Below are positions 39,401 to 64,000 of a stretch of DNA of 64,000 nucleotides, one piece after another. Positions within the stretch are counted from its first letter, which is position 1. Every line of letters starts with the position of its first letter. The notes below the pieces were generated by a model that worked only from the letters and a program-made list of their open reading frames with translations, was not told the DNA's origin and made no database searches. Origin of the DNA: Balanoglossus misakiensis (taxonomy: Eukaryota > Animalia > Hemichordata); contig CM082597.2 of assembly GCA_040954595.2 (NCBI GenBank), forward strand, positions 2,478,449 through 2,542,448. Reading direction: 5' to 3'. Both the position numbers and the translations under genes were made by a program.

Positions 39401-39583
39401 AACCATTGCAAACAGCCTTGCCCGCAAATCTTCACACTGCGATAATGGACTGGAAACTGTGGACTGTAATCTAACCTCACCACTACTTGGGGTATAAGTA
39501 TAGGCCTAATCTATAGCAGATAGAAACATTGTTTGTTCTGAATAATGTAATGTTAATGGTCTTCATTTTTCTTGCAGGTAATA

Positions 39584-40825
39584 ATGAATGAGAGCTCAAC
39601 AGAGGACACCCTCCAATATCTACATCTACCCGGACAGGGCAATGAAACCACCGACGAATGGCGCATGCCAAGTCACTGGTACGTTCCCAAGTCCATCATT
39701 TATTCCATGTACAGTCTCTGCATGGTCCTGATAGTGACGGGGAACCTGATGGTCATCATCGCTGTGCTGCTGGAACCCAAGCTTCGCCGGCTGCCAACGA
39801 ATCTCCTGATAGTTTCCCTGGCGGTGTCGGATCTTTTAGTTGGTTCATACTACATACCATCAGTAATCATGTGGGATGAGGCTTTGGAGTTGATGCTGAA
39901 TCCTGTAATCTGTAAAATCGACGGTTTCATCCAACTCACCAGCACGGGGGCCAGTGTGTTCAGTCTCATCGCCATCGCTGCTGACCGGTTCCGAGCCATA
40001 GTGACCCCTCTCAAACCGAAGATAACACGTTGTCATGCATGTATCATGGCCGCCCTTGCCTGGATATGCGCGATGTGCTATGCGTCCTACATGCCAATTA
40101 CTTGGGGATACCAGCTGTACATCGAAAACTACGGTAACCTAACTTTTGTAACTCCCTACTGTTTCCTTCTGCCGTCGACCGTGCCATTCACACTGTTCCG
40201 GACAATGGATTTCGTCGTCCTGTTCCTGGTTCCACTTTTGGTCCTTATCAGCCTTTACGCGCCAATGGTGTACAAACTATGGTTTGACAAGCAGCCAGCA
40301 AGTACGACAGGCCACAAGAAGAAAAACGCAGTAAAGACGCTATCCATGGTGGTCATATTGTTCTTCACAATGTGGTTGCCACATTACACTCTCTATCTGT
40401 ACGTTCAATACGGCGACTTCATGAGCTCTAGAGCGAACCTACGAGCTGTGGCTTTGTTCGCTATTTGCCTGAACTTCTCCAACAGCTGGGTAAACCCTAT
40501 CATTTACGCCTGCTTCAACGACAGTTTCCGCAACGCTTACAAGAACACACTGCTCTGCAGGATTTGGAGGATGACCCGACGGGTGTACCCGACGTCTGAC
40601 CCTGAATCAGACCACGGAGGTGAAATACGAGCGACCAACCTACAACAACAGATATCATCCAGAAACACTCTCCTGACAACTGTACACACAACGTCTGCAC
40701 ATAGCATTATCTCAACCGTACCTACAGCTGTAGTTCTGGCACAACCTGCTAAAGCTTTCATAGCACAGAATCAGTATTTGCTTTCCCCTCATATGTTTAT
40801 CAGTCGAAAAGATAACTTAAAGTAA
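39584..40825 (+). CDS. Class A GPCR, neuropeptide/RFamide-receptor-like, paralog of 1043-2221, about 413 aa
   Basis: Same motifs as the paralog (GN, LAVSD, DRFRAIVTP, MWLP, NSWVNPIIY). About 78% identical across TM1-TM4 by my manual count. The real start is the ATG at 39584, after an acceptor ttttcttgcag (ending 39577); the ORF track's 39572 start is a TTG. Confidence 0.93.
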   Translation: MNESSTEDTLQYLHLPGQGNETTDEWRMPSHWYVPKSIIYSMYSLCMVLIVTGNLMVIIAVLLEPKLRRLPTNLLIVSLAVSDLLVGSYYIPSVIMWDEALELMLNPVICKIDGFIQLTSTGASVFSLIAIAADRFRAIVTPLKPKITRCHACIMAALAWICAMCYASYMPITWGYQLYIENYGNLTFVTPYCFLLPSTVPFTLFRTMDFVVLFLVPLLVLISLYAPMVYKLWFDKQPASTTGHKKKNAVKTLSMVVILFFTMWLPHYTLYLYVQYGDFMSSRANLRAVALFAICLNFSNSWVNPIIYACFNDSFRNAYKNTLLCRIWRMTRRVYPTSDPESDHGGEIRATNLQQQISSRNTLLTTVHTTSAHSIISTVPTAVVLAQPAKAFIAQNQYLLSPHMFISRKDNLK

Positions 40826-42072: not shown

Positions 42073-43104
42073 CTAGCTATTGTTGCCATTCCCTTTTATA
42101 TTGAAATATGAGGCTGATATAGCAACTATGCAAGAACTCAGGATGATAAAGCTGGCACCAAGGATGTCGTAGAGGTTCAGTATATAACCAAAGAACAAAT
42201 AGTCAGCTGCATAAGCGATGACAATCTGGATATTGACAAGCAGCACGACTGTCGTAGGAGGCTCTATCTGCAGGCTACGAAAGCGACACAGAAAGTTCAG
42301 ACAGAAGGAGACGATCAAGCCGGTTAGCAGTCCGAAGGCTGCGCCAGATAACTGCCAACGCGGCGTGCCTACGGTGAAAGTCAGGACGAGGCTGATCAGC
42401 GATCCGATTGAGCTCTCGTAGAAGTTAATGACCAAAACGTTGACGCCATCGCCGATTGCTGACCCAGTGACGTAGGTGATTGAAAATCCAAACCCGCAGA
42501 TGACACTCAGCAGGTAGCCAAGCCAAGCGTAGTCGTCAGCAGCCTCGTCTGCTTTGCTGGTTGCACTGCCGAATATAGCCTCTGGCTGAGCGGTGAACAG
42601 AATACCCGCCAGGCAAAGAATCGTGCTCACAATGTGGATTTTCGTGAAGGGCTCCTTAAGAAAGATCCTTGCCAAAATCGGGGTGATGATGGGCATTGTA
42701 CCACGATAGATGGATGTGACGTTTCCAATTGGGATGTACACAAGAGCGAGAATCTGACACATGTCTGCAAGCGTGTAAATGATAGCAATCATTACCAGCA
42801 ACAAACGCTCTCTGAATGTCTCGGCCAAAATGGCCTTGGGTCCAAACAAACACAGGATAAATGGAGTCACACAAATAAAACTTCCTCCATACATTAACAG
42901 CAGCAGTTGATACGGCGACAGGTGCAGGTTTTCCAAGAAAACAGTGAAGGTGTTATTAAGGGCAGAGAAAACTCCTGCCAAGAGGGCGAGACACACACCC
43001 TTAACGGATTGGAAAATGTGGCCCTTAGTTGTATCTGCACCATTTTCGTTGTCTTCGGATTTGCCGTTGATGAGAAGATCGAGTTCCGTACCATTTCTTG
43101 CCAT
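42073..43104 (-). CDS. SLC35G-like / EamA (DMT superfamily) transporter, about 343 aa, intronless
   Basis: About 10 hydrophobic segments in two EamA-like halves. Motifs GVCLALLAG, ALVYIPIGNVTSIY..PIITPILARIFLKEPF, AQPEAIFG, RSLQIEP...QIVIAYAADYLFFG...DILGASFII. The first ATG is at 43104 (MARNG). Confidence 0.88.
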   Translation of the reverse strand: MARNGTELDLLINGKSEDNENGADTTKGHIFQSVKGVCLALLAGVFSALNNTFTVFLENLHLSPYQLLLLMYGGSFICVTPFILCLFGPKAILAETFRERLLLVMIAIIYTLADMCQILALVYIPIGNVTSIYRGTMPIITPILARIFLKEPFTKIHIVSTILCLAGILFTAQPEAIFGSATSKADEAADDYAWLGYLLSVICGFGFSITYVTGSAIGDGVNVLVINFYESSIGSLISLVLTFTVGTPRWQLSGAAFGLLTGLIVSFCLNFLCRFRSLQIEPPTTVVLLVNIQIVIAYAADYLFFGYILNLYDILGASFIILSSCIVAISASYFNIKGNGNNS

Positions 43105-44297: not shown

Positions 44298-44384
44298 GGT
44301 GGAAATGGATTGACCATAGTTTTTTTCATTAGTCTAGATCATCATGCTTATTCGGTACTATAGGCCACTGGCCTTAATGTACTA

Positions 44385-44588
44385 CTGGAAAACACTTTAT
44401 TTTCGCGAGCAATAAATTTTTGCGAAATTCGTGAGAGCCAAAATAGCGTGAAAATAAAAAGTCGTGTAATTTTTCTTGAAGATAATGCAGTGAATGAAAT
44501 AAGAGAACACGACAATTAATACACGCAAAACTGTGGTCTCTCTCGATATCGTGAAAATTTCAACTCGCGAAAATAAAGTGTTTTACAA
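44385..44588. mobile_element. MITE with TA target site (Tc1/mariner-type); same family as 52879-53086
   Basis: TIRs CTG(G)AAAACACTTTATTTTCGCGAG...CTCGCGAAAATAAAGTGTTTTACAA, flanked by TA. Colinear with the copy at 52879. Confidence 0.85.
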
Positions 44589-44853
44589 TATTTCCATATC
44601 GAAAAAAAGTTACAGTCACATTAGTCTAGTTGAAAAACAAAGTCTAGACTACAGGTTGTTTTTCATTTTCACCTTGAGTGTGAAAAGCACTCAGAGAGTT
44701 ACCTTTGTACTGTGTTGGTTGTTCCTATGGTCTTCCGTGTAGCTCCATCTATCTTCATTCTTTACGGGCGTGGTGCTTTTGACCTACCTGATTGATCCTC
44801 TTCTGAACTCCCATGGACAACTCAGTCACACGTTCAGCTTGTCATTCGCAATT

Positions 44854-45076: not shown

Positions 45077-45082
45077 TTTATT
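45077..45082 (-). promoter_or_regulatory. Candidate polyadenylation signal of the large mosaic gene
   Basis: AATAAA on the minus strand about 240 nt after the TGA at 45320-45322. Confidence 0.45.
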
Positions 45083-45319: not shown

Positions 45320-48300
45320 TCAGAAACCCAGATCTGTCATATACTTAAGTCCTGTTAAAAAAGCAAAAGATAGTATTCAAAAAACAGAACAGTGGACTGT
45401 AATATGATCTTCATCATTTGCAGTAGATACCCACAGAAGAAAAATGCTGGAAATATAATGAAAAGTTACAGCTAATTGAGCTTTAATGATAACTTCAGAG
45501 ATCGAAACATTTTCAAAGTCACAACTTGAAAGGAAAAAGGACACACCTGCTACTGCACTGAGGAAACCAGAACTGTAAATCCCAGCCTCATTCTGCAGCC
45601 AGTTTGTACGAACATCGTCATAGTTGTCCTTTTTGTCAGGCCCACCGACCAACGCTCCGTACAACGGTTCAGGGTTTGGCGCTGTAAAATGCAGAGTGGC
45701 CCAGTTGCACGGCTCGGGTAGGCTAGGACAGGAGCTATATTTCCATTTTTTAATAAGACAGGGAGAGGGAGATAGAGAAAAGAGAGGAGGGGAGATATAG
45801 AGGGGGAGAGAGAGATGAGAGAGAGGTAATAGAGTGAGATCCAATATGATGAGTGACAACTTTTCTGGTGTAAAACTCCATACAGTTTAATACTTTCATC
45901 CCATAAAGTTCCCTTGTCAGAGATCCAACATTATCATAGGAAAAAATGGGTTTGAACTGAACCATGGTGGTGAAAGGGTTAAAATAATCAAACCATAAGG
46001 CCATTATACATTTATGGTTCTGCTTACCAAGTCTTGGATACTAACGATGCAGACGTTTGTTCTCATTTAATACTTTAGAATTAACCTTACCTGCCCCTGT
46101 GATGTACTCGCTGAGGGGGATCTTTGCCAAACCCGGACACGTAGCTTCTACCACCATCGCCGAGGATATAGTGAATCTGGCTGCGTGCCCACTCGGTGTA
46201 GATCTCTGTGTTGATTCCATATTTTGCACAAACAGTAGCTAAGAAAGCTACGTTTGCTAAAGAGGAGATAATATAGATGGAATTAATTTTCGTTGCATTG
46301 GAAACTAACAAGAATACATATTATAGATGGAATTAATTTTCGTTGCATTGGAAACTAACAAGAATACATATACAGTCGAACCTGTCTATACTTGCCAGTA
46401 AAGGGACTTTCCTAAAGAGACAGAGTGGCCTTTATAGACAGGTGGCCTTTATATACAGGTCAATTAATGCACATTAATTTTGCACAGGACGTGTAACATA
46501 GTGGCCACCTGTATAAAGTGGCCACTTTATACAGGTGGCCACTAACATAGTTTTGACTGTATTTCATCTCAGAAAATCAACTCTTGGTATGCACAGTCAT
46601 ATTGAATATTGTCTGCATGATTCATATCAATCTGAGAGGCTTACACTTCTTACAATACAAGAGGCTAATTAATGGGATAATGAAAACACACCTGTATGTT
46701 TTAGAGGCTGGAACTGGTTCCTCCAGGCGAGTCCTTTAGGTGTGTAATAGGTTAAATCCCCAGGGAACCAGACATTGAAGAAACTAAAGACGGGTTCCAG
46801 GTAGGATTGGTTGTTGGTTGCCAAATACATTGTTATCTGGTATAACAAAAAGAAATTACAGACTTAACATTTATTTGTTGAGTGGGGCAAAGCAGTTATA
46901 GATTATGTATTAAAATCTTGCCAATAAATATTTAATTACAAAGCAATTCAAATCCAGACCTAAGTACATCAACACAGACGGACACATAAACATAAATAAT
47001 GTTTTCATTGCTCAACTGAGCAAAGGATGCTGAAATGGACAGGTTTGTCTCATGAACCGACCAAGATCCGTGCAGCAAGGGTAGTTCTAATGCATTCTGC
47101 CTTTACCTGCATCCCTGATGTAATTGTCGACCAGCTGAACTGAGTGTTTGTACGGTCCATACCAAAAGCGTCGTAATGATCCATAGCATCATCCAGGTAA
47201 TTCTGCTCGCCTGTAGCACGGTACATACACACTGCAGCATTCGTCAGCTCATCATAAAAAGAGGAACTCCTAAATTGTTTAAAGGGTATAGACAGTAAAA
47301 GAAACTTAAGGATATATAATTTTTTAAAAATGATTCCAGAAAAGTCTGTTTCTGCAGATGTCTAAAATGTTTGAGCATCAGAGCTTTAACAGAAATATAA
47401 TAAAATCGACCATCTCTTTTGATAAGATACTGTGTTTCTGTAATATTTTCAAGTAAGAATATCTTCTCAATATTTTTCCGAATATGAGTGGTTACAAATT
47501 CCTGGACATTCCAGGAGACTAAGAAACCCTCGCCGCAACTTGAAAGGACAGTGCAGAAACTGAACACTCACGTATAATGACCCGTGTAGACACTATCGGA
47601 CCATTTTCCGCGGTACACATTGGCAAAGTCGTACAACTCCCTTGCATGAGACAACAACAGAGCAGCATATGCTGGATCTATAAACATTGTACAGGAGAGA
47701 AGCAGATGAAGATTAAATAGAGGAAAAATAAAACTGTGTTTGACTTGTAAAATACTGAAAATAAATCACAGAATGAAACATCAACAACCAAAACTCAATT
47801 GTGTGTTGGTGACTTTGCAGCGCCTTTTTAATCAAAGGATCGCTGGATTTCTCTATATAAGTTTATTAATATTTTTTTTCCAAAGTATTCACTGAAATAA
47901 AGCTGCAATCCTTTATCTAGGAAGAGAAGGGTACGCTTGAGCGATTTGAGAGAGTCCAGTTCTTGGTACACTTCTCAGAAAAAAAAAATTTATGTTGATA
48001 ACTTACCAGTTTCTAGGAACACCATGTACGCCAACGCTAAAGATGCTGCAGCATTTCCAGCAATATCACTACCTGGATGTTCAGTATCGAGTAACAGTGC
48101 TGTACGGTTCATAGTCATCTGCTCCGGACGGCCCCAGTAACCGTGGTCTAGATCGGGATTGCCCACCTTAACAAAACACAATTGCAACAAATATGAGGCT
48201 TTAGTGAAATTTTGATCTTAATTTTGACAGAGCAAAAGCACACTAAAAACTCCGCAAAACAAACTTGTACTTGGAGATTTAAAACTTTCTTGTGCCATCT

Positions 48301-49173
48301 GATAACTCTTAGTAAACCAAATTTTTGCAAGTTGACCTATGTGATGTACCACTTCAAATACTAAAATGTCTAAAAAGCTGGTAAAACTTCTTTCGATGAT
48401 TAGCCCATTTAAATTGCTACAGATTACTTCTTTTAACTTTCCTGGGTGAAACTTTTCAGGAAGACTGATACCCTTTGGTTATGCCTCTTCTTACTTACCA
48501 TGGCATAAAATTCATTGGGCTGGGTGTGGCACTTCATAACGTAATCAAGACCCCATCTCACACAGTCGTACATGTAGTCAAGTTCCCAGGCATCTTCATA
48601 GGCATCTCTGAATTCATACAATCCCCATACTAGCTTCCACAGGTTATTGGTGAGAGTCATCGAAAATTTAACATGGTCACCAGCTGTAAAGAAGGGAACA
48701 GTTTCAATCTGGAAATTGTCATTTATGGAAATCTACCATGTCATAACTATTTCTATGTTTAAAGGGCCACAATCGTCTTATGCGCATGTGCCAAACCAGA
48801 GACTCTGGTTACAAAAATGGTATACAGATAAGACAAGTGTGCTGTCCTAACAACAGACAAGATATGGCCAAAGTCTGTGTTGGAGATCAGGAAATAAGAC
48901 AGCAAATTGGATGAAAAGGGACAAAACTAGTCTAGACAATCGTTGTCCTTTAAAAGGTAACCAATCAGATCATATCATGCAGGATGCATGTTAACTAAAA
49001 AATATATAACTCACCATCATACCACCCTCCAGTGAGGTCTTCGCCATGTAGCCCCATATCGTACAGGGCAGAGTCACCTCTCCAAGGTATTCTGTTATCA
49101 GGTGGTAGAATACCAGAACGCTGTGTTTCATAGAACAATATCATTTTATGGATGACTTCGGGATAATTGTATT
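45320..49173 (-). CDS. Glycoside hydrolase family 9 (endo-1,4-beta-glucanase/cellulase) domain, 9 exons
   Basis: YNYPEVIHKMILFYETQRSG..IPWRGDSAL..DLTGGWYD|AGDHVKF; DHGYWGRPEQM; PGSDIAGNAAASLA; YDEL; YTPKGLAW; QIHYILG..SYVSGFG..HHRGSSC; LYGALVGGPD..QNE. Catalytic DAGD and the C-terminal Glu are present. Confidence 0.95.
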
Positions 49174-52100
49174 CTGCAAGAAAAACATCAGGATATCTTA
49201 ATAAACCTGACTATGAGATCCTACAGGGCAGGATCAGTCGTATTGAAACTTACTGAACCTGTTAGCAACTTTCTTATCATGAATAGTGTCCTGGAAACTA
49301 CCATTTCCATCTGCACTGTAACATTTAGTCTGTATGCATTTTTAACAGAGGGTACTGACTTCTCATAAACTTTTCCGATTTGCATGAAAATCATTCTGTA
49401 GATATATATTCTTTCATGTCAGTTGTGAGACAAGCGATATATAATGGCATATATTTATATTAATTTAACTTGTGTGGAAGAATAAATGAAAATTGTAGTA
49501 CTTACTCTCACAGAATGTACCATACGACCCAGGCCAACAGATACACTCACAGACACCAGCACCATTATCCACCAAATCTCCCTGCCTGCACCACTTTTCT
49601 TCACTCCCCTTACAAGCTAAAGAAGAGTTTTATTAATAAGTTATCTGAAACTCACATTTCTCTTAGAAAGGGAAGTACAAAAATAGCATTGATACTTACA
49701 GAATTGGCAGACGACATATTTCTCTTCTGAACAATTCGACGATATCCAATTGTACGAATTAGCACCACTGTCAAAGAAAAAATTAAACATGGCTGTTAAG
49801 ATATTTTCACCATAGGAAAACTACAGCATAAGGAGTGCAAGAAAAGTTCCGACTCTGCATTTTCCAAAGCATTTCAGATCCGCCAACTGAAAAAGTAGCA
49901 TGGGAACACCATATTCTCTCTCTGTTTGTTAACATTCATTGATAAACAATTAATACATATAAAAATCAGGAAAATGACGATATTCTAATTTTTGAGTAGA
50001 CCACTACCTTAAACCATGACTTACTGTCTTTCTCATATAAATTGGTACTATTTCACCTATAGACACTGAAATACAGAAAGTTCCCTTTTGATTGAAGATC
50101 ATGGCTGTTTCTCTATTTTGCATATTTTATTACCTTGCTAATGTACACACTTGACCTTGCTTAGGTTCTGCCGGTGTCCACTTTGTAATGTGAGGTGCCT
50201 TGGAATGACTGTCCCTCCACACGTACATGACAAGTTCGAGGTCAATGTAGAAGTCCTCCAAGGGGTGTTCAGAGGACTGTAGGAACATTGTGAAGTTTGC
50301 GTATTTTGCTTCGTCCAGCGCACTTGGTAGGTTGCCGTTGCGTTCCTCGCAGTAACTTTTCGCGTCATAGTAGTTCATCTTGTGATCCGCCATGATATAT
50401 TTTGGGGGCAGTGCGTTGAGAAATTCTGTGGAAAAATCGAACATCATGTCACAATAAGTACGCAGAACACAACAGAAAAAAATTTGTTATGAAAATTAGT
50501 GGTGCAAGAACCACTTCACTGATGAGACCATTCATTGTTTTCAGAGCTGAAAGCTTTTCCGTATATTTTTAATGAGTGTTTGATCTCTTAAGTTCTCAGA
50601 AAATTTATGTCTATGCATACAGGGCATGAGAATATAATGATCATAACAGTGCCACTTTGAGATGTAAATAGATAGGCACTTCAATAGAACTCACCATCAC
50701 AAAATTCCCCCTTCCAGTCTTCAGCACATTCACAAGAACAAGTGTCTCCAGTTATGGTAATGTTGCCATGGATACACCAGGAATCATCATGGCAGCCTAG
50801 AAACAATCAGATATGTCAGATTATAATAAGAGACTCAGGTCACCTTTACCTGGGGGTGCCAGTGCTTTTGATTTAATTTTCGGACACATGATCTGATACA
50901 TACATATCATATATGGCTTGGCTACATTATGTCTCTAAAGTGAGAAAGAAATAAGAATGAGAATTATACTCACTGAACATGCAGATTGAAGAGGCACCAC
51001 CGTAGCAGTGATGGTCACTCCATTTGTAATTGTTCTTTCGACTAAAGGAGAATAGGAGGAGCGAAATAGATTTTGTTTATAAAACAAATCACTGAAGATA
51101 CAAGTACAAAATTGGTTTACTCTACTTCAGCTTATGCATGCTATCGAAGCATCGCAATGATGCATATTTTGAATTTTCTGACAAAAATATATATAAGTGA
51201 AGCGTCCTTATATGTACACTTTAGAGGGATTGCTACAATAAAAAATCTTGACTTTTTACCTCAACACGGCACACTCTTTATCATTATCATTCGGTTCGCT
51301 CTCCGCCCAGTCGAAAAACGTAATGGTTTCCTGGAAAAGAGTCAGCCATTCGTTGCTGTCTGAATTATTCCGACGGAACCCGAGGAAGAACTTGTCATGC
51401 GCAGGTCTTGCCTTGATCACATCGATCAGAGCCAAACGCGTTGCCTCGTTTGGTATATGGACGGGTTCCCCGTTCATATCTAAACAAACCCGAGTGGCTT
51501 CGTTCCAACTGAGATGTGATGAGTGGATGATCTTGTATTTTGCGGGTGATACCGGCTCTAAGGGAAAGATGATAAAACTTTAATTAAGTTATTACAAAAT
51601 GTCAATGTTTACAGTAAGCATAATCTGACAAGAATTGTCATGTAATATTGACATCGTAATCTTGTAAATGGTGTATAAGTTCTCAAACATTTCAAACATC
51701 TTGTTGATATTAGTTTTCGAGAAATACATAAAAGGGTTCACCTTCTTCACGCTTGGAAAGGCAACTCACGCCATCTTTACACACGCATTCATTTGCACTG
51801 CAGATCTTCATGAAAGAAATGGAGAAAAATTATTAATATGGAAGTGAAAGTTAAATAAATTCTCAACAAACTGTTTGGTAAAAACCCTAGCCAGCGAAAT
51901 TGTAAATCTTTGAAACAAAATAGAGTTTTATGTGTCGACTGCTTCAAACATTTCAAGTTCTATCCCCAATGACTTTTTACCACTCACCTTATTTTTACCA
52001 CAATGAATCTCACTCTTCTCAGGAATGGCACCATCTTCCTTCATACATCCTTTGCTTCCAGAGGCAATTTCCACGTATTCGCACCACAGTTCGCAGTCAC

Positions 52101-55100
52101 CCTGCCAACATACATTCAACATTATATCTATACAAAGTATACTATGAATATGTTACCATTAATGGTGAAGATTTTAGAGGATAGGGAATATTTTTGAAGT
52201 ATTTTATTGTGGAAAAAAATACGTGAAATTTGGCAGCTCTAGAGGCTTTAATGCAACAACTGTATGTATCCACATACCGTCAATTCCGGCTTACGCCATG
52301 GACAGCTTCTCTCGCTGTAGTACTCGGGATTGTTCTCGAAAAGGGTTTTGCAAATGACATCAGCTTGTAGCGGGTACGTCAGCATAGTCTGCCAGTCACC
52401 AGGAATCGGTGCGTTATCAAAACATGTGATGTATGGTTTGCTGTGAGCAATCAGATTAGAGAATATTACCAACAGTTTAAAGGAAGGCCTGAAGACAATT
52501 ATCAGAGTTTCGGTGTACAATTGTTTATTTTTTATTGCGGTTTTGCTACGTCAAATTTGAATCAACGTGGTTCTGATACTGGTTCCTCGTACGTCAGCAG
52601 AAATTGGTTGTATTGTCATTCTGTGTTCAGTTGTTTATTTTCATTGCCGTTTTGCTTTGTCAAATTTGAATCAACGTGGTTGTCTGATACTGGTTCCTCC
52701 TACGTCAGCAGAAAATGGTTGTATTGTCATTCACGTGAACTGGGGAGTTTCAGCTTGGAGGCCGTGAACGGTTTTAAAGCCTCCAGGCAGAACCTCGCAG
52801 TTCACACAAATCATCTTGTCCGAACCACAGCACCAGTGGCACTTAATCCAAAGACATACAATGCATGATCATAACATACTGTAAAACACTTTATTTTCGC
52901 GAGCAATAAATTTTCGCTAAATACGCGAGAGCCAAAATAGCGTGAAAATAACAAGTCGGGTAAATTTTGTTTGAAGGAAACGATGCAGTGAATGAAATAA
53001 GAGAACGCGAAAATTAATACTCGCGACACAGTGGCCTCTCTCGATATCGCGAAAATTTTAACTCGCGAAAATAAAGTGTTTTACAGTAGTAGTTGTATGT
53101 TGAAACAAAGATTATGCAGAAAGGGTGGGGGCGGTATACTTAAGCATTACAAATAATTATTGCCTAGGCTACAAGCGATATCGTATGGTGATACATGTTT
53201 CAATGCACTTGACACACACCAGCAAATACCAAGAGGAGGAAATTGTCCTAGAACGCTTACTTCACGTAATCGAGAAGATCCTTCCTGTTGCATTCAGTGA
53301 AATACACCCTGTCAGCGTTTAACATTATCCCTTTCTTTGTTTTGGAAGCAGAGTCCAGGCCATGACAGTTGGGATCCAGTTGATCATAGTACATCCCAAG
53401 CCTACAAGAACAAAGCAATTGCTTGAGGGGTTTGTTTCGTATAATGTATTTTAACCAAGCGAAAAGACATCTACAGTATACCAGTGTTAAACACATTTAT
53501 GAATACTTTACTACAAGCTATTGGTAATACTATTAATTTGTTTTAGCAGTACTGATATCATAAACAGTCTTACCTAAGTTTTAAAATGTTAAACAGCTTA
53601 AATAGAAGTTGTCAGATCAGCCTCGATAGTTTATATAATTGTGACACTTGAAATAAAACTCGCGGTACAGTACGAACTGTTTCATGTTTTTATTCAACAC
53701 TAAATTGTTTGCTATTTATCACGCAAGAAGGTGGGCAGGGAAAACTTCAAGACATGGGCTTTGTGTTTTCTGTTTTTTTTGAGGCTCAAAAAATCTTAGC
53801 ATCAGTTTTCTCTCTTCTTCAAAGTATATGAACAAAACTATGATGATTGTACTCACATCAGACCAATTTCGTGTGCAATAGTACCTCTTGCCCCCTCAAA
53901 CGAGGAGAGTTTTACCACAGAGCATGGTTCAGTATTGCATGATTGGAAGTTGCTGAGTCCGGTGTCGTCTCTTGTGTCAACAACTGATGACCTAAATTTA
54001 ATTAATAAGCATGTGAATTAATTGTTAGTGTTCAGAGTGGCCAAGGGGTGAGGCATGCACACACACATTACACCAGGACGGCTGAAACCAACTGACCTGG
54101 TTTCATTCACTTCACCCATTTATATAGCAACACACAGGTGTCCGGCCTTTACCAGGTGTAACGGTATGACCATGCAAATACACTAGCATATGCAAATGCA
54201 TACAGTGTACAATGCAAATTTTCACAGGTGTTACACAAATACAGGTCACTTCAACAATGTTCATGCAGAAAAATCCAACAGATAATATAGTAGCATATTT
54301 TACACAAATTCGCAATGTGTCATATCAAATTAGAATTTGGTAATGTATTTTTAATTTAATATATTAAATAGTTTTACATGGTTATAACTTGCACATTCCC
54401 TGCCAGTAATTATACCTACACACACACAAATACACACACTGTATACATACCCACTTAGAAGAATAGCAGCATCGTAATGGTCTGGGTTTTGATCATTATC
54501 ATCCCAGAATTTCGGTTCCCATTTGGTTTTGTACGCCATGTAAATATCACTGATGTCAGCCCACCTCTGAACTTTGTATGCATCCTGTCAATCAATTGCA
54601 AAAACCCAGGTTTCACTGATTCAACTTTTACTGAGAAAATTCACTTTATTATAAGTTTGCAAAATTTATCATTCACAAAAATACTGCTAACAAGACGATT
54701 GAAGTAGTTATAACTGCTATTACAAGACATATCTTACCTCTAAAATCGGTTCCTCAAGGATTTGTACATTGATCACGTGCAGAATAACATGAATACCATA
54801 CTGATAGAGAGACTCGTGAAGGTAAATTGCTTGCACCTGGAACCAGCATCACAGAGAAGAAAATGTTTAGTAACTGGGGTGACTTTTGGTTGACAAATGT
54901 CACTTTCAAACAATTTCACCTTTCTGAAACTCAATATGATTAGTGAGAAAAAATTATATTCTTCCAGTGCAGTGTGAATGTGGTCTTTTAGACAAATGGT
55001 ACAATCAGGACTTTTAATCAAACGGAATACAATCATCGAACAATTAGAGTAGTTTTTCTCACATTGTTGATCAATGTTACAGCAAGCATAGCAGCATCAT

Positions 55101-58100
55101 CGCCATATTCCTTGTATACATCATAATTCACTGTCAACATCAATTCCACATGTATTTCACGTCTTCTGTCTGTTTCTGGCTTCCTTCGTTTGCGCAGGCG
55201 TCGCTGTCTTCTCGCTTTGGTGAACCTCTGGTTCATTCTAGCGTGAGTATGTCTGGTCGGCCTGAGAGCTTTTGGCGGTCCTGCTTCTTGGACATCTGAT
55301 AAGAAAGGAAGATTACCAAAAGTGCTGATTTAACGTTGGGGAAAAGGAATACCGGAGCATACAGAAAATAGTCTTTTATTTGAATTAAAACTGGCATGTC
55401 AGTTTCTTCTAATATGGATTGTTTGTCTATAAACTTCTCACAAAGTTAAAGCAAATCTGTCTTAAAATGATGGTACAGAAACCAACATGTGTCAGTACTT
55501 TGTTATGATTAGTTGAGACCTCTTTGCCATAATAGAACTTGCAACGACCAAACCTCACCTTCTACACGGAATATGTCGATCAAAAGTGGATGATCTTCTT
55601 CTGGATTCTCAACCAACATGTACGTCCCCCTAAATTCCCTCGAATTACTCTCCACTGGGAGTACATTATACCGCATATCATCAAAGAATAATGATCCTCC
55701 CTAGTAAGAGAGAGAGAGATAAAATCATAAAATTATGTTTAAGTTTTGTTCAGCACATTCAAATAGTGGACTGCCTTCGCTTATTTCCATATTTCATGTG
55801 CACTGTATAAGTAGACTTTTGTTATGTCCTTTCACCCAATTTTCTCTCTTTTCCCACTTGATGATTACATTATAAAATTATCACACATACCATGCTTCCA
55901 CAAGGACTCACTGCTGCTCGGCCATGAGATTCTTTGACCTTGGCTATGCCACATCTTCTGGTGACCGGTCCCATGAAGTGGCAGTTTTTGGGCTTGATAA
56001 ACTCAGAGGTGAAATTGTCCTCGCCCTTGAAATGCACTATTTTCGCACTTGGTACGATCAGCTCTGTAGGTAAAAAGGGTGATCATGATCTTCAATTTTC
56101 GCTATTTACGGAACTGGAAAAGGTTAAACCCTATTAACTTACATTTCATATTCTCTTCATATCACTTCCTGGGCAGTAATTCATGGGCATAAAAAACACA
56201 GTTTTGCTTGGAGAAACATACCTATATTCTCCGTCAGATTGAAGTAAAAATCACAGCCAAATGCCTTCATGAGACAATCCTTCTGGATACCGGAGCCATA
56301 GGTCTCGCACTCGGGATAAACGTAGTCATACTTGTTCGCTGTGCATAAAAAAAACACATCAAAATCGGAAAATAAAACGTGTGTTACCGTACATAACTTG
56401 AGCAATACTGTTTAATATTGACTTCCAAATGTCAATGTTTGTTTTCAATTGTCTGACATTTAACAATTTACACCTCTTTTCACTTTTCATTTGCTCTCCC
56501 AGATAATATCCTACCATAACACAGAAACGTCATCTGCCTACCTTCTTTGCTTCGATAAATACCATAATAATATTTCCCAATTTCTCCAGCATTGTCGCCA
56601 CTGTCCGCACTGCTGCCTCCTGTACCACTGGATTCGCTGTCCACGCTGTCACCAACTGAAGGATCTGATTCTTCTGTGACACTCTGTTCCAGAAAGAAAA
56701 ACAGTAAAGGGACATTCCCTGTAAATTTTGGCTTTATTTCCAATATTTTTTTCTTTGTAACAAGAAGCTGCAGTGTTCAATTGTTAAATAAATATTTTTT
56801 GTGCAGACTTCATACTCACACGTATTGATCTCTTCTTTGTAGTAGCCACTGAAATAAAGGCGATAAATAAATTAAGTTGATTTGAATCAGAAAATATGAC
56901 CTTTCAGAATACAGCTGTTGCAAACTTTTTTCGTAATAAACTTTACACTGATAATGAATATACTTCAATTAACAAATAATAAAAGAATCATATATACTTC
57001 AATATGATCATGCCTACCATCGCAAAACGTTCCTGTCCAACCAGTGTTGCATGAGCATTCACATCCAATTGCGTGTTGTGTTACAACTCCGTTAACACAC
57101 CAACTAGTTTGACTTACACATTCTGTGATAAATGTTCAAAAGAAAACGATGTTTCAATCTAAAACATGTAACAATATTTTATTCAAAATGACGTGTGTAC
57201 TCGTACGTATATATCAGGCAACATTTCAGGAACACTCGTCTCTAGTCTCCTATATATCTGCATTGTAATCATTGATTACCTTGGAGAGAAATACACAGAA
57301 TGGCGTATGTTTATTTTATTAAAAATACAATTACAGTTTTCTTCTTGTGTTTAGCACACTGCACAAATATAGTCTTACCAAATTCACACAGACTCAGGCT
57401 ATTTGCAAATCTACATGGTCTTGGTTGCCATTGGTATTCACGATCAGTCCTGTAGAAGATATAAATGACACTGTGAAAGGCTAAATATAAATGTTGAGTA
57501 TTTAATGTTTCCTCGAACAGCAAAGAATAGAGACAATTTATCTGGAACATCATTTGGTACAACGGACTATAATATGCATTAGTATATACACATATCAAAG
57601 GCTATTCTATAACTACGATATACACCAAAGTTGATAAACAAATCCTTCTTACCTGACTGCTGCACAAGTATCATTAATCTCAACATCCCACAGCCAATTG
57701 AAATATTCTTGAGGTCCATAATCATTGACCCACACCATATCTTCCTTTTGCAATCCAATGTATATCCTTGCGTTAGACGGGGTTTGGGTCTGAAGGAAGC
57801 TTTCGATAGCCGCCTGTGTGCCTTTGTTTGTTGAGGGCGCCAGTCTGCCATTCAGAGCCAAACACTCTCCTGGAGCATCTGAACCTTTGACTATGTTTGG
57901 ATTGAGCCAGTACATGATGTCGCTGCGAACTGAGATCAAATAAAAAGCCATGTGTCACAACAGTTAAAAGGCTGTGACAGGCCTTATGTTCAAAAAGAAT
58001 GCAAAACCTGTCTTTCTTGAAGAATAAACAGCATAAACATAGACACATTTACTCTTGCCTGCTATTCCCTGTTGGACAATATCACCTTTTTCATTAAACC

Positions 58101-61100
58101 CTGGAAACACAAATTATCACGTATGAGACTTAGCAGCAAACAATGTTCACTCCCAACTCTGGAAAGTTGACAAACTGAGCTAATGTATATCTGACAGATT
58201 AAACGGCAACATTATAACTAAATCAAACAGGGTTTACCTTCACAGAACTCTCCTGTCCATCCAGTGTTACATGTGCAAACACACCCTTCAGTCGGATCTG
58301 TCTCGATTACTCCGTTAACACACCATGTAGCAGACGGACTGCAATCTATATATGAAAATTAATATCGTAATTTTATTCTTAAATGATTTAAAAATAATTA
58401 ACATTTTAAGACACAAGTATATATATCGGAAGAACAATTTTCCAGCTGTATGTTGCATTTCCAAAGGACTTTGAAAGAAAAAGTATCAAACTGTTTTATG
58501 AGCCTAGTGCGGCAAAGTGGCAATACTCACCAAACTCACACAGATGTTTTCTGCCAGTTGTGCCACAGTTTATCATCGACCACTCCCACTCAGCACCGGC
58601 CAAGCTAAACAGAGTTAGGATAATTCAAATATTAGTTTCCCAAATGCTTGGTACATGCATTGTGACAATATTGGCGAGAAATGAGATACCGCAATTCGCG
58701 TTACTGCGAATATTCTTTTCAAAGGAACATCACATGTTCAATTGTTTTAACTTTATTGACAACACTAGGTTTCTTTCCTGTACACGACCACAATCTACTT
58801 TCTGTTGAGATTCATATAGCATTTATTTCATACCTTATGTAGGCGCATTCTTTCCCGATGTTTGTCGAATGACCGATGTTCGAATGCCAGTTTGTGTATC
58901 CACTTTGTTGCGTATCATTACCATACATCCAGACATTATTCACCTTGTGAATACCAAACATCACGTCTGTCGCTGACGTCGTCCCAAGGTGAGAGATAAC
59001 ATTCTGTTCCGCCTGCTGACTCAGTATTCGGGCTAGTCGTCCACCATTTTCGCTGCATGCAGCTACGGAATCGGTGTAGTCGATGGCGTCGGGTGACAGG
59101 CGATAGCGCACGGTGGGTTCAGGTGCAGGCTCTGTTGGTGAGGAACACATGGCATTAAATCAAGCAAATGAAGCCAGCAATACATGGCACCTTTCATTAT
59201 CATTACATCAAGTCCATTCTGTGGAGTTTCAGAAAACATGAATTAACAGGTGGTGTTAAGCATGCAAGCAATTAATTCACTGCTTTGCAGAATACAAAAC
59301 TTCATTAGAATACATACCTAGACAAAACTGTCCCTGCCAGCCAGTGTGACATACACAAGAACATGTACCAAGTTCGCTGTCAATGACTACGTCACCATTT
59401 GTACACCAGGAAGCGCCAGCAATACAATCTATTAACAAATCATTCCAAATTTTACAATTCAAAGATTTAAAAGTGAACATTAAGTTTTTGGGCATACCCA
59501 CCCATGAAAACGATTATCTGACATTACAAAGTATTTTTATACCAATTAAAATCAGCGAATGGCCTTGTTTGAGAACGTAAAATGTTCTGTAACAGAACTG
59601 TACAAAACCTTTACTCACCAAATTCACAAACATGTGCATTTCCCCAGTATTTGGCACAGTCCTCTGTCACCCACATGTAATTATCTGTTACTCTGCAGAA
59701 AAAAAACATCATTGTAAAAAAATCAATCTTTTGGCAATTAAGTGCATGTCCACCACTAGTGCGTGAATGTTTTGCACAAAGTTTAGGGTTTTTATCTTCT
59801 CAAACATTCGCAATCCAATGGGTAATGAGAGATTACCTGATGAAAAAGTGGGACAAGGCCAATAGGATACTGGTAATACACATAAGCAGGTAATTAGACA
59901 GTGTAACAATCAAAGTCTTCCTCATAATATGATTTAGTTTTGCATTTTCATTTATTACTATTGTTTGCTGTAATTTGTCTTCTTGCATCTCTTGGTTCCT
60001 TTCAATTCCTTGGCCAACATCAAACAGTAAAACTTACTCTAATGCTGAGCAGTCATATAGAGCAAGAGGTTCACCATCTGTCCAATTAGTGTACTGAGTT
60101 GGGATGTTGTTCTGGTAATATACCCAAGCTCCATCTACCCTAATGATACCGATGATGACGTCTCCCGAAGCCGGATTGGCGCCCACTCCTTCAAGGTAGG
60201 CCTGGGCACGCGCTTGGGCGTTGGCACTGTCCACGTTCAGAAGTCTTCCTCCGTACATTTCGCAGTTTTCCTTGGCCTCATTCCAGGCGAAGATCGCCTG
60301 TGGCATCCAGAGAGCCTTGGCAGTTATTGGAACTGGAAGTGAACATTATTGAAAAGTTAAGTTGAAAAGTCTGGTATTGAAAAGTTAAGTTGAAAAGTCT
60401 GGTATTGAAAAGTTAAGTTGAAAAGTCTGGTATTGAAAAGTTAAGTTGAAAAGTCTGGTATTGAAAAGTTAAGTTGAAAAGTCTGGTGAACATTATTGAA
60501 AGTTCGGTGAACATTATTGAAAAGTTAAGTTAACATTATTGAAAAGTTCAGTAAACATTATTGAAAAGTACAGACATGTTAGTTCACATTCAGGGATATA
60601 AAAAAGAGGTCTATGTATCTTAAAGAGACATAAGCTGTAACTTTTGGCTGTAATTCCAGTATTTTTGTTCTGTGTACCAAATGAAATTTCTTGTTCTACT
60701 CCAAACAATATGCTAAAAACCTTCTACAATTCCTGAACAGAAAACCATAAATACACCTACCATCACAAAACTCGCCTGTCCACGCATAGCTACAGTCACA
60801 TCTGCATCCTGTGCTCAGCATCTGCACAGTACCATGTGCGCACCAAGAAGTAATCGTTGTGCAATCTGTATTGTGATGAGAATCATAGAAGTATATGTTC
60901 GTAACATGTACATGCCAAGTTCATCAACTCTGAACAGCCAATACGGTGAATTATACACTGGTTGACAATGTACAAAGTGGCAAAACACCCCCACATATCC
61001 ATTCATGATACTTACCAAGTTCGCAAACACTCAATCTGTTTGCCCAAGAACAAGGTACAGCTTGCCAACCATACTCGCGGTCACTTCTGTTAAAGAAAAT

Positions 61101-64000
61101 GTTGACACAGTGTTCTTGAAAATTTGTGCAACAATTTTTTTCACGTTTTTTCTGGCCCATGTGAAGTTCTCGAAAATTTATCACTCGCGAAAATTTCCCT
61201 ATTAACAGTACTACCCAATAAAAATTGTATTACCTTAGAGTGCCACATTCGTCAGTTTCAGCTACAGCGAATTCCCACTTGAAGAAATCCTGGTCACCAT
61301 CTTGGTTCACCCAGACGTCGTTCACCCTTTTCAAATCAAAGAAGAATTTCGTGTAGGCAGTGGTCTTCGTGTCAAGAAACTCGCCGATCATCTTATTGGT
61401 TCCTGGGTTTGGCGAGACGGCCAATCGACCGCCCCTGGCAAGACACCCATCGGCAGCGTCTGTCCCCGAGACTGGTGAGGGGTTCAACCAATATCGGACG
61501 TCGTTTCGAACTGGTAATGAGAAGAATCATTGGCAGAAATTTGAGTTAAACGCTCTAATTTTGAATTGTAGCAATGTCAACTTTACCTTCAACGGCACAA
61601 AGCAAACATTTACGTTCCCTAAATATCTTCTCATATGTATTTAACCATTTTCTTTTATACTGACTATTCAACTTTGTACAGGGAATCACTCACCTTCACA
61701 GAATTCTCCTGTCCATCCTTGCGAGCATGCGCATGCACAGCCATTGTCAATGTCCGCAACAACCTGGCCATTAATGCACCACAAGTCTGACGAGCAATCT
61801 GCGAAATGAAAAGTGAAACATTTGAGAAATTTTCATCGAGACGTGAAGTGGTGGTGAGCAACAAGAAGGTTCAACATATGTCATGAACAAAGTCAACAAA
61901 ATCACACATTCATTGTAGAGTGTCTCCTCATGATTTCATTATATTAACGGCAGGAATTCAAACTCACCAAATTCACAGATGTATTTTCGACTGTTTGCAG
62001 TGCAGTCTATCATGTACCATTCGACGACACCATCTAACACACTGAAAAATAAAATAATTCATCTGTCAGTTTGAGCTTGGTGTACTAATTAACACAACCA
62101 TTGAGTATCATTATTTGTTTTCATGATTGTTTCGGTCCTCTCGATTAAGTGCATGTGCTCATTTTAACAGCAGATGTTGTATTTATGCCAATTACCTGAC
62201 GTAGGTACACTCTTTTCCTTCAGGGTTGTTGGCAGCATTCTTGTTCCACAAAGTGAAACCTCCCTGTTGGTTGACATCATCTGCCATCCAGGCGCCATAG
62301 CTTTTGTAGAGACCAACCAAAATTTCACTTTCTGCGGTGGTGTTGATGAATGCCATGAGATTGTCAAACATTTCCGGAGACTGCATCCGTGCCAAGTCAC
62401 CACCGAAGTATTCGCAGGTGTCCCACGCAGTGATGTAGTCGGCTGGTGTTGATGAGAGTCGATAACGAACTGTTGCTGGCGTGTCAGGTTCTGGAAAAAG
62501 AATTTGATGGTTTGATAATAAGTAGAATAACTCCAATGACCTCGCAATAGAACGGAGATTATATTTATGCTTCAGTCACGCATAAAACTCATCGGAGAAA
62601 ATGTTTCGTACAAGTGTCATGTACTCACGTAGACAAAATGGTCCTTTCCAGCCTACTGCACAGGTACATGAGCAATACCCATTCTCCAGATCTATGGTGA
62701 CTTGTCCACCATTTCTACACCAAGGAGAACCATTCAAGCAATCTGTGTAAAATGTCACCAAAACATTTCAGACATTGCCTCAATTAAACACCAATTAATA
62801 TAATATTTAAAAGTTACACAATGCTAACCAAAGGGCAAAGGGAAACAGGCTACAATTTCTCTGTCTACTAATGCAATATATAAACTGAATATAGATACTT
62901 GCCAAATTCACAAATACTAAGCCTTCCGAGAGCTGCAGTGCATAAAAGAGGTTGGAAACCATAATCTTTGTCCTTCCTGTAATGTACAAAATAAAACAGA
63001 TCAGAATAGACATTGAGAAATGACAAGTGTGATACAAGATGAGTTTTTGATAATAAATACCAATATTTCTGTGAGAATACTTCTTTATCTATATTGTATA
63101 TACAAGATAATTTATACACACACACACAAACATACAGACAGACATATATTTTTACCTGAGAACAGCACAGTCGTCGATAGCATCCACACTAAAAGCCCAA
63201 TCAAAGTAGTCTTGTTGGCCATCACTGTTAACCCACAAATCATTTTCCTTTCTCAAGTCGAAATAAATACTATCATCTGGAACAGTCTGCGTTGAGATAA
63301 ATGCACCAATACCCTGCTGTGTACCAAAATTTGGCACAACCGCAAGCCTACCACCCATAGCAACGCATTCATCATTGGCTGTTAGCCCTGACACTGGTAG
63401 TAAGTTCACCCAATACATAAGATCAGTGTAAACTGCAATGTATAATATAAGAACACAAATATTAACAAGGATTCTCCTGGTGGTGATATCTTGCTAGTTA
63501 ATAGCGTACTTCATCGCATGATTTGACGTCAATTAGCAAAGACTACAATAGGTTTTATTCTGAAATTATTGTAAATGTTTATAGCCCTTAGGAATGGTAC
63601 TATTTTTGCATTCTGTTGTGTACTTCTAAAAGATATATAAAGAAATAAACATCTTGTTGTACCTTCACAGAATTCTCCACTCCAACCACTGTTGCAGCTA
63701 CAGAAACAACCTTCTTCAGCATGTGCAGTTATCACGCCATTGTTACACCATGTGCCACCCGAACAATCTAATCATGGAAAAGACATAAACCAAGCCTGTT
63801 AAATATCAGTGACACTGTTTAAATTGTTTTCATTTATTTAAGCTGATAACACCAGATGAACATCATAACAATATTTATTTTCTTAACCATCGTCAAGTAG
63901 GAATATTTTTTTAAACAGTTACAGGAAAGTAAAGTAGGTTTTAAACTTACCAAATTCACAGACATGCTTTCGACTGGCAATAGTACAGTCCGTCATGTAC
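45320..64000 (-). CDS. Giant multi-exon mosaic protein, 5' end outside the window: (CTL-EGF)x>=7, linker, ADAMTS-like prodomain, inactive M12B domain, disintegrin-like domain, (CTL-EGF)x2, GH9 endoglucanase
   Basis: 48 manually spliced exons, all phase-compatible, 6,889 nt in the window, no internal stop. In transcript order: 63951-64000, 63663-63767, 63156-63432, 62903-62976, 62629-62742, 62196-62490, 61968-62041, 61694-61798, 61234-61510, 61016-61086, 60761-60865, 60038-60332, 59619-59692, 59318-59428, 58834-59131, 58531-58604, 58238-58345, 57653-57929, 57379-57449, 57018-57122, 56820-56848, 56542-56683, 56222-56338, 55891-56063, 55559-55700, 55063-55295, 54738-54836, 54451-54584, 53857-53991, 53261-53401, 52278-52440, 51988-52101, 51742-51805, 51260-51557, 50974-51041, 50695-50796, 50134-50425, 49700-49767, 49506-49616, 49015-49173, 48499-48683, 48007-48166, 47572-47677, 47107-47269, 46692-46836, 46091-46256, 45547-45734, 45320-45351 (ends GLKYMTDLGF*). 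Confidence 0.82.
45887..45982. mobile_element. Short TTAA-flanked (piggyBac-like) non-autonomous element in an intron
   Basis: TTAA-TACTTTCATCCC...CCATGGTGGTGAAAGGG-TTAA, imperfect inverted ends with TTAA on both sides. Confidence 0.45.
46271..46370. repeat. 50-bp near-perfect tandem duplication
   Basis: TATAGATGGAATTAATTTTCGTTGCATTGGAAACTAACAAGAATACATA occurs twice in succession. Confidence 0.95.
46373..46559. mobile_element. pogo-like MITE (CAGT...ACTG ends, TA target site)
   Basis: TA-CAGTCGAACCTG...GTTTTGACTG-TA, with internal GTGGCCTTTATAGACAGG-type subrepeats. Confidence 0.8.
49506..51557 (-). CDS. Two C-type lectin + EGF modules directly preceding GH9
   Basis: CTL1: SWNEATRVC..FLGF..WAESEPNDNDKECAVL..KWSDHHC..SICMF, then EGF. 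CTL2: NYYDAKSYC..YIDL..WTPAEPKQGQVC..WISSNC..VVCQF, then EGF CECICWPGSYGTFCE. Confidence 0.9.
51742..56338 (-). CDS. ADAMTS/reprolysin (M12B)-type prodomain, metalloprotease-like domain and disintegrin-like domain
   Basis: Prodomain: KAFGCDFYFNLTENIELI, NCHFMGPV..RAAVSPCGSMGG. Polybasic RRQRRLRKRR. Catalytic-type: IHVELMLTVNYDV, DQNPDHYDAAILLS, TIAHEIG, Met-turn GIM. Disintegrin-like: ADVICKTLF..C..CELWC..CGKNKIC..EC. Confidence 0.88.
52521..52732. repeat. About 110-bp tandem duplication (2 copies) in an intron
   Basis: ttgtttatttt..GTCAAATTTGAATCAACGTGGTT..CTGATACTGGTTCCTC.TACGTCAGCAGAAA.TGGTTGTATTGTCATTC occurs twice. Confidence 0.9.
52879..53086. mobile_element. MITE with TA target site, intact copy
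   Basis: Perfect 25-bp TIRs CTGTAAAACACTTTATTTTCGCGAG / CTCGCGAAAATAAAGTGTTTTACAG flanked by TA. Confidence 0.9.
57018..64000 (-). CDS. Tandem array of C-type lectin + EGF modules (6 complete CTL, 1 partial CTL, 7 EGF)
   Basis: Repeating three-exon unit: a 277-298 nt CTL exon (C..GGRLA..(F/Y/V)xGL..W..W..C), a 71-74 nt exon (W..C..(I/V)CEF) and a 105-114 nt EGF exon (C..WC.NG..C.C.C..GW.G.FC). Confidence 0.92.
60347..60568. repeat. 28-bp minisatellite (5 exact copies, 60347-60486) plus degenerate copies
   Basis: Unit TATTGAAAAGTTAAGTTGAAAAGTCTGG read directly. Confidence 0.95.
61130..61210. mobile_element. Partial MITE related to the CTCGCGAAAAT...ACAG-TA family
   Basis: Ends GAAAATTTATCACTCGCGAAAATTTCCCTATTAACAG-TA, resembling the right end of the 52879 MITE. 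Confidence 0.45.

Follow-up and report, generated by a model that had tools for sequence, protein, structure and literature searches.

A gene of the acorn worm Balanoglossus misakiensis appears to join a C-type lectin/EGF array, a zinc-less ADAMTS-type module and a remodelled GH9 domain

Introduction

Can one animal gene carry a lectin array, a protease-like module and a glycoside hydrolase, and if it does, what might its product do? The question is raised by positions 64,000 to 45,320, minus strand, of a 64,000-nucleotide stretch of Balanoglossus misakiensis DNA (GCA_040954595.2, contig CM082597.2; the whole stretch is called the window here). In animals, GH9 proteins are usually taken for plain gut cellulases, and ADAMTS domains are assumed to be proteases. 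For this locus a sequence-only reading had described a single gene in which C-type-lectin-like (CTL) and EGF repeats are fused to an ADAMTS-like pseudo-protease and a GH9 cellulase, the product being seen as a secreted, multivalent glycan-binding scaffold and a cellulosome-like single-chain device. What we find is a new domain architecture made from known parts, conserved and, as far as searched, undescribed, which is less of a "cellulosome" than first proposed. Our best explanation as a whole, to which we give a probability of about 0.45, is that the gene would encode a secreted precursor, cut by convertases, with a lectin-tethered GH9 of altered specificity and a pseudo-protease scaffold.

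Gene model

Exons were placed by hand on the minus strand and the model was then verified by script. It comprises 48 exons with 6,889 coding nucleotides (nt) in one open frame of 2,295 amino acids (aa) and a single stop codon (45322-45320), so that the uninterrupted frame of more than 2,290 aa reported before was rebuilt with its coordinates exact. The 47 introns span 83-820 nt (median 203 nt) with compatible phases, all 47 acceptors are AG, and the donors are GT in 46 cases and GC in one. GC content is 46.8% in exons, 33.3% in introns and 25-33% in the three introns at the module junctions, namely 57018/56848, 51742/51557 (intron 33, 184 nt) and 49506/49173 (a 332-nt phase-1 intron). The splice sites of these junction introns are of ordinary strength, with leave-one-out ranks among the gene's own 47 of 31-38 for donors and 6-12 for acceptors. 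Scanning the three introns for an ATG-initiated hydrophobic exon with a fitting donor gave none, which bears out the earlier statement that no signal-peptide exon stands at the junctions, and their span of 169-332 nt leaves no room for the starts of separate genes. An alternative donor at 51769 (phase 0) inside exon 33 scores 5.2 against 7.5 for the donor used and was rejected because the ortholog (see below) retains the residues beyond it.

The frame encodes, in order, a partial lectin domain, an EGF, six CTL-EGF cassettes, an exon with K-K-R-S, a Ser/Gly linker, a prodomain-like region, an Arg-rich stretch, an M12B-like domain, a cysteine-rich domain, two CTL-EGF cassettes and GH9. The 29-nt exon (56848-56820) and the linker (56542-56683) join EGF to protease module as first described. 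The features are as follows.

63663-64000, minus strand: exons 1-2, final part of a C-type-lectin-like domain that the window edge truncates, followed by an EGF; the gene goes on upstream
57018-63432, minus strand: exons 3-20, six three-exon cassettes, aa 52-986 (model, Pfam, ortholog)
56820-56848, minus strand: exon 21 (29 nt), KKR-S basic site, aa 991-994, a predicted convertase site
56542-56683, minus strand: exon 22, Ser/Gly/acidic linker, 56% identity to the ortholog
55559-56338, minus strand: exons 23-25, M12B prodomain-like region, aa 1044-1187, 83% identity to the ortholog
55183-55212, minus strand: Arg-rich stretch, aa 1216-1225, two furin-type motifs (R-x-K/R-R) lying after the prodomain and ahead of the protease-like domain
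53261-55295, minus strand: exons 26-30, ADAMTS-type M12B pseudo-protease, 82% identity to the ortholog
51742-52440, minus strand: exons 31-33, cysteine-rich ("disintegrin-like") domain of ADAMTS type with K-R (aa 1545-1546) at its end, from cysteine pattern and fold
50695-51557, minus strand: exons 34-36, CTL7 (EPN at aa 1636-1638, W-S-D) and EGF (Pfam, motif)
49506-50425, minus strand: exons 37-39, CTL8 (no sugar motif) and EGF, 64% and 81% identity to the ortholog
45320-49173, minus strand: exons 40-48, GH9 (alpha/alpha)6 domain, aa 1862-2295, 77% identity to the ortholog
45077-45082, minus strand: AATAAA, likely polyadenylation signal by its motif, 238 nt past the stop codon

Pfam was run on single exons, and Reprolysin was recognized only on full-length relatives. 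Lectin_C was found on 8/8 lectin exons at E<=0.1 (five above the cut-off) and Glyco_hydro_9 on seven of the eight GH9 exons submitted; the 11 single exons of the linker/protease region gave no match.

Some smaller features of the gene may be recorded here. Its sole GC-AG intron (62902-62743) lies between exon 4 (donor after 62903) and exon 5. GH9 exons 47 and 44 have weak acceptors at 45735-45830 and 47270-47290 (scores -4.4 and -1.8), the former with a long CT tract far upstream of the acceptor AG; alignment with the ortholog backs both boundaries. Intronic tandem repeats occur at 52509-52732, 60347-60573 and 46268-46371, with units of 111, 28/22 and 50 nt, and the 50-nt duplication directly precedes the acceptor of exon 46. 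An element with inverted ends, resembling a miniature inverted-repeat transposable element, is present in two copies (52877-53088 and 44383-44590, 88% over 212 nt), the first of them in intron 30, the longest of the gene.

Relatives in other hemichordates

The ortholog in Ptychodera flava is covered by two RefSeq models that lie on one 50.65-Mb scaffold, and its degree of identity fits an acorn-worm host near to P. flava yet different from it. XP_070551007.1, found with exon 41, is 73% identical to model aa 1716-2285 and retains the EGF/GH9 junction, and XP_070551727.1 is 68% identical to model aa 1-1557 and retains the EGF/protease junction. The latter reaches 64 aa further upstream than the window model and also begins within a lectin domain. 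It was found in a full HMMER search with the protease module of the paralog XP_070555870.1 (35 matches), as were XP_070551725.1 and Saccoglossus LOC102803169. A word-based search with exon 26 alone had found nothing among 20 candidates although the ortholog is in the collection, and blanks from single exons are thus uninformative.

Two P. flava paralogs join Reprolysin, Lectin_C and GH9, as found in a search for long GH9 relatives (best 120 of 306 matches): XP_070555870.1 (1,375 aa, with four RefSeq isoforms X1-X4, XP_070555869-72) and XP_070548213.1 (2,030 aa). The first aligns to model aa 957-2295 in one high-scoring segment, with 41% identity over 1,350 columns, through all three junctions; it has no long lectin array before the protease module, and in XP_070548213.1 the array is placed after a second type of M12B module. 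Among those best 120 matches no other protein has Reprolysin; proteins of 334-1,064 aa were not covered by the GH9 query, and shorter relatives may exist elsewhere. Outside Ptychodera no fusion of GH9 to the pseudo-protease was found, as 0/34 non-self matches of the protease module carry GH9, and tblastn found no further family copies elsewhere in the 64-kb window.

We regard it as very probable that exons 1-48 form one gene. Splicing across the junctions and a single transcript are what we infer from the sequence and its relatives, and the open frame, normal splice sites and collinear paralog all agree with the single-gene CTL-EGF/M12B/GH9 architecture put forward earlier. The lectin-M12B-GH9 architecture is that of a family, present in RefSeq as "uncharacterized" P. 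flava models. The earlier remark that it was not known from the literature holds to the extent that no describing paper was found, and does not hold for RefSeq. Our full-text literature search had most subscription journals outside its coverage; the hemichordate genome paper PMC4729200 (main text and two supplements) does not mention cellulase, endoglucanase or ADAMTS, nor does the accessible part of PMC13554239.

Three observations on relatives stand apart. Isoforms X3 and X4 of XP_070555869-72 are made without the segment that holds the His-rich stretch, the EGF and K-K-K-R-S, so that what stands ahead of the protease module is optional there. Saccoglossus XP_006822155.1 is a separate GH9 with EGF_CA domains, a Thr-rich stalk and the ordinary motif after the acid Glu; its model looks partly mis-joined, and it gives a second hemichordate EGF-GH9 arrangement. 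Two Styela clava proteins of about 2,100 aa each carry three or four tandem GH9 domains.

Protease-like module

The protease partner is certainly zinc-less, judged by its motif. In the window and the ortholog the zinc motif reads HExxLxxGxxY, H1383 and E1384 being kept, the second and third His replaced and the Met-turn kept, and the full HExxHxxGxxH is present in 0/6 family M12B domains versus 23/28 ADAM/ADAMTS-like controls. The module had been called an ADAMTS-like pseudo-protease, and that it remains. In a tree of 29 rows the six family domains form one branch (100/100) with a long stem and two types; the Saccoglossus domain is included, so the loss of the zinc motif is old.

The ADAMTS affinity rests on fold and cysteine pattern. 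Reprolysin (PF01421) matches the ortholog at E=2.2e-7 and is above cut-off in ortholog and paralogs, and the ortholog prodomain matches Pep_M12B_propep at E=2.8e-4, below cut-off, and appears as a folded beta-domain in the predicted structure. This prediction has a mean pLDDT (predicted local distance difference test score) of 79; its best fold matches are ADAMTS4 (E=1.8e-14), ADAMTS1 and ADAMTS5, in alignments of about 323 columns that span the catalytic and cysteine-rich domains. The cysteine pattern of the latter aligns with ADAMTS_CR_2 regions, and Pfam ADAMTS_CR_2 itself gave no match in the relatives scanned. No TSP1 or spacer domain was found in the ortholog, the two paralogs or the Saccoglossus protein, and in the window a lectin exon comes next.

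Identity to the ortholog is 83% in the prodomain and 82% in the pseudo-catalytic domain, followed by 77% in GH9, 66% in the cysteine-rich domain and 56-69% in the lectin domains, so by these alignments no other large part is as well conserved as the zinc-less ADAMTS-derived module. It has probably been retained for a non-catalytic job, most likely protein binding, for which ADAM22 offers a precedent.

GH9 domain

GH9 residues were compared with those of 125 other GH9 domains, and TfCel9A numbering was taken from the alignment. The catalytic D1914, D1917 and E2272 align with TfCel9A D55, D58 and E424, and these are kept in the window along with the equivalents of H125, W128, Y206, H376, R378 and D415; the D55, D58, E424, H125, H376 and R378 equivalents are retained in three of the four family members. 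In all four, however, P65, T71 (to W), E155, Y196 (to W), W218 (to N) and K263 are changed, and so are W313 (to F/F/G/N), G314, R317 (to K), Y420 (to W), D428 (deleted) and N430, while D261 is changed in three. Ten of these positions (T71, E155, Y196, W218, K263, W313, G314, R317, D428 and N430) are each 91-100% conserved in the 125 other domains, and the family replacements at conserved cleft positions often bring in an identical new residue. Downstream of the acid Glu, an Asp and an Asn (present in 122/125 and 125/125 others) are lost with a one-residue deletion in 4/4 family members, and the W-D/N-x-K (WDDK) motif is found in none of the four versus 119/125 others. The region III signature PS00698, which we take to be E-x-[STA]-x3-N, likewise matches 0/4 family members versus 108/125 others (10/22 animal domains). 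The window also fails the region I signature PS60032 in the form given in the accessible text of PMC6032398, which the ortholog and 111/125 others pass; the same text gives two signatures and describes the roles of DAGD and region III. According to the available portion of PMC10149213, with equivalence by alignment offset, the D261/D262 equivalents lie at the -4 subsite, W313 lies along the cleft and H125/Y420 form a +1 clamp.

The fold itself seems sound. The ortholog scores 414 bits with Glyco_hydro_9 (PF00759), its barrel is predicted with confidence, and it matches earthworm and termite GH9 at 1.1-1.2 Å root-mean-square deviation (TM 0.97 to 3WC3). In a tree of 41 rows the four GH9 domains of the family group together (100) within the animal GH9s; a bacterial origin is unsupported, as the bacterial branch of 14 rows is separate from them.

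This pattern of replacements favours a shared redesign of the non-reducing side over random decay, with a shifted substrate or product. A precedent is found in stick insects, whose GH9 paralogs cut xylan, xyloglucan or glucomannan according to the part of PMC4919086 at hand. The name cellulase is not well supported: the catalytic residues are kept, yet every family member has other residues at many cleft positions that hardly vary elsewhere in GH9, and the domain is probably not an ordinary cellulase.

Lectin array

Each cassette consists of three exons, CTL-a (phase 1-2), CTL-b (phase 2-1) and EGF (phase 1-1), and three-exon units that start and end in phase 1 are the usual substrate of exon shuffling. 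The six cassettes before the protease module have 56-75% identity per module to the ortholog and lectin classes in the order A-B-A-C-B-A, none with EPN or QPD. Only CTL7, which directly follows the cysteine-rich domain, has a canonical-looking sugar site (EPN and W-S-D), EPN/QPD being absent in 7/8 complete lectin domains; the equivalent domain of XP_070555870.1 also has EPN. A multivalent glycan-binding scaffold is not supported by one EPN/WxD-type site in eight lectin-like domains.

The lectin classes are common to the window gene, the paralogs and Saccoglossus, and the post-protease class occurs twice in XP_070548213.1. In this paralog and in the Saccoglossus protein an array of C-B-A type follows a type II protease module, and XP_070551725.1, a truncated type II M12B protein, is numbered next to the ortholog in P. 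flava. Together these arrangements suggest that the window gene may have a second dead protease upstream of the window.

Processing and secretion

Basic sites flank the protease module. The EGF/linker border has K-K-R-S in the window, R-K-K-R-S in the ortholog and K-K-K-R-S in XP_070555870.1. After the prodomain the window has two R-x-K/R-R motifs, and the ortholog is basic there but without an exact R-x-K/R-R. The cysteine-rich domain is followed by only K-R in the window and by R-R-K-R in the ortholog and XP_070555870.1. The ortholog therefore has canonical sites at both flanks, and the window the weaker K-K-R and K-R. With convertase-type sites on both sides in window, ortholog and one paralog, a cellulosome-like single chain is no longer the obvious product. 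The 2,295-aa model shows neither a transmembrane segment nor a hydrophobic tail, and three relatives begin with a signal-like hydrophobic segment, so the product is likely secreted, as had been supposed. A secreted precursor cut into modules is the simplest reading of these motifs, and we give it moderate odds.

Proposed model and alternatives

We propose that a single transcript with a signal peptide, both inferred from the relatives, would be translated into a precursor, and that convertases would cut this at the basic sites flanking the protease module and after its prodomain, as the motifs suggest, releasing the array of repeats, a scaffold without catalytic activity, and a glycoside hydrolase guided by its lectin. 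The CTL7-EGF-CTL8-EGF-GH9 piece would act like the invertebrate CBM2-GH9 enzymes, with the EPN lectin domain replacing the carbohydrate-binding module (CBM). CTL7 could tether the enzyme to mannose-, glucose-, GlcNAc- or fucose-type glycans of food particles, microbes or mucus, and the substrate of the GH9 would be a glycan other than plain cellulose. The dead protease, which seems more strongly constrained than the GH9, may bind proteins or act as a chaperone, and the motif-less lectin array may be a spacer or protein-binding rod. Such a gene could have arisen when shuffled symmetrical phase-1 CTL-EGF cassettes joined the front half of an ADAMTS to a native animal GH9. More tentatively, acorn worms may possess a secreted polyprotein family of their own, in which a non-cellulose GH9 is aimed by a C-type lectin and coupled to a conserved dead ADAMTS scaffold, the full gene perhaps exceeding 3,000 aa with two dead proteases.

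Several results weigh against the cut-precursor model. The coding frame runs off the 5' end of the window, with start codon and signal peptide outside it. Two of the window's three basic sites (T-K-K-R and L-S-K-R) are not canonical furin sites, and XP_070548213.1 has no basic site before its lectins. In its current model Saccoglossus LOC102803169 has no GH9 and stops in the array. What weighs most against a single gene is the RefSeq annotation, in which the ortholog is divided, between its cysteine-rich and lectin parts, into XP_070551727.1 and XP_070551007.1. The former ends just past the cysteine-rich domain, the latter begins within CTL8, and CTL7-EGF is in neither; since both begin at internal methionines without a hydrophobic segment and the cassette between them is absent, the split looks like a broken model. 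Finally, XP_070555870.1 has lost the equivalents of the base Asp, H125 and R378, so the family tolerates a dead GH9.

Because of this last loss a GH9 that only binds remains a serious rival, within one gene in which both enzyme domains are non-catalytic and the product is a secreted adhesive, matrix or recognition protein whose GH9 binds glycan and whose M12B domain binds protein. The zinc-less protease partner fits such a protein, as do the missing WDDK motif and the lost Asp/Asn in 4/4 family GH9s and the long CTL-EGF rods, which suit structural or recognition roles. We nevertheless think it unlikely, since the window, the ortholog and one paralog, at identities of 58-77%, have each retained the three catalytic carboxylates together with the His/Arg and His/aromatic clamp residues, and the predicted barrel is intact, 1.1 Å from the active earthworm enzyme. 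More doubtful is an uncut single chain that combines a multivalent sugar-binding array with an ordinary cellulase for algal or detrital cellulose. The open frame, the intact GH9 catalytic residues and predicted fold, the weakness of the window's own flanking sites and the molluscan GH9s, which are gut cellulases tied to algal feeding in the accessible part of PMC7560691, all speak for it. Against it are the single sugar motif among eight lectin domains, the conservation of the basic sites and the replacement of residues whose counterparts in a characterized GH9 serve to bind the -4 glucosyl unit and its neighbours (PMC10149213, available portion; counterparts by alignment). Least probable, and in our view quite improbable, are two or three adjacent genes (array plus pseudo-protease; lectin plus GH9) that merely look fused, for which the separate RefSeq models, the Saccoglossus model, an ATTAAA in intron 33 (51584) and an AATAAA in intron 21 can be cited, but intron 33 is short with its ATTAAA 26 nt from the acceptor, both ortholog models have internal starts and omit a whole cassette, and two paralogs continue through the protease/lectin junction.

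Other genes in the window

Two intronless rhodopsin-family G-protein-coupled receptor genes lie at 1046-2242 (minus strand) and 39557-40822 (plus strand), with 7tm_1 matches of E=9e-45 and 1e-39. They are 67% identical in DNA over 887 nt and face away from each other across about 37 kb without a conspicuous long open reading frame. An intronless EamA/SLC35-type transporter gene (42076-43104, minus strand; PF00892, E=6e-28) lies 2.2 kb downstream of the GH9 stop codon.

Significance and comparison with known systems

If exons 1-48 are one gene, a deuterostome lineage fused GH9 and ADAMTS parts and silenced the protease, yet conserved it more than the glycosidase. The redesign of the GH9 cleft is shared by paralogs on three scaffolds and is a candidate for a new animal glycosidase specificity, and the pseudo-protease family would be at least as old as the Saccoglossus/Ptychodera split. 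Through this gene it may become possible to study how acorn worms, as deposit feeders, deal with food particles, microbes or mucus, and it should be noted that current annotation splits the ortholog and so hides the architecture.

Russell's viper RVV-X consists of an M12B heavy chain with C-type lectin-like light chains and is an active venom protease whose lectins come from separate genes. Its pairing of M12B/cysteine-rich and lectin-like parts recurs here, and RefSeq names XP_070551725.1 after it; the likeness is superficial, with nothing pointing to a venom role. ADAM22 is a non-catalytic ADAM that serves as the LGI1 receptor. Its structure (5Y2Z) is among the fold matches of the ortholog module, and both have the M12B fold without zinc; ADAM22, however, is membrane-bound, has a true disintegrin domain and no lectin or glycosidase, and lost its activity separately. 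Closer are ADAMTS1, 4 and 5, which share with the window module the prodomain, the basic stretch, the M12B fold with its Met-turn and the cysteine-rich domain, whereas the window module lacks a complete zinc motif, TSP1 and spacer and is flanked by CTL-EGF cassettes and GH9. The animal GH9 endoglucanases (earthworm 3WC3/8IHW, termite 1KS8; CBM2-GH9 of molluscs, echinoderms and cnidarians) have the same fold and catalytic Asp/Asp/Glu, but the window gene has lectin-EGF and protease modules in place of a signal peptide or CBM2. Other long animal GH9s carry CBM2 among the best 120 of 306 matches, and the accessible part of PMC7560691 describes molluscan GH9 with CBMs only. The nearest systems are hemichordate: Saccoglossus LOC102803169 shares the zinc-less M12B branch and the lectin classes, and P. 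flava XP_070555869-72, XP_070548213.1 and the split ortholog share the remodelled GH9 as well, the window gene differing from the P. flava paralogs in its long array before the protease module.

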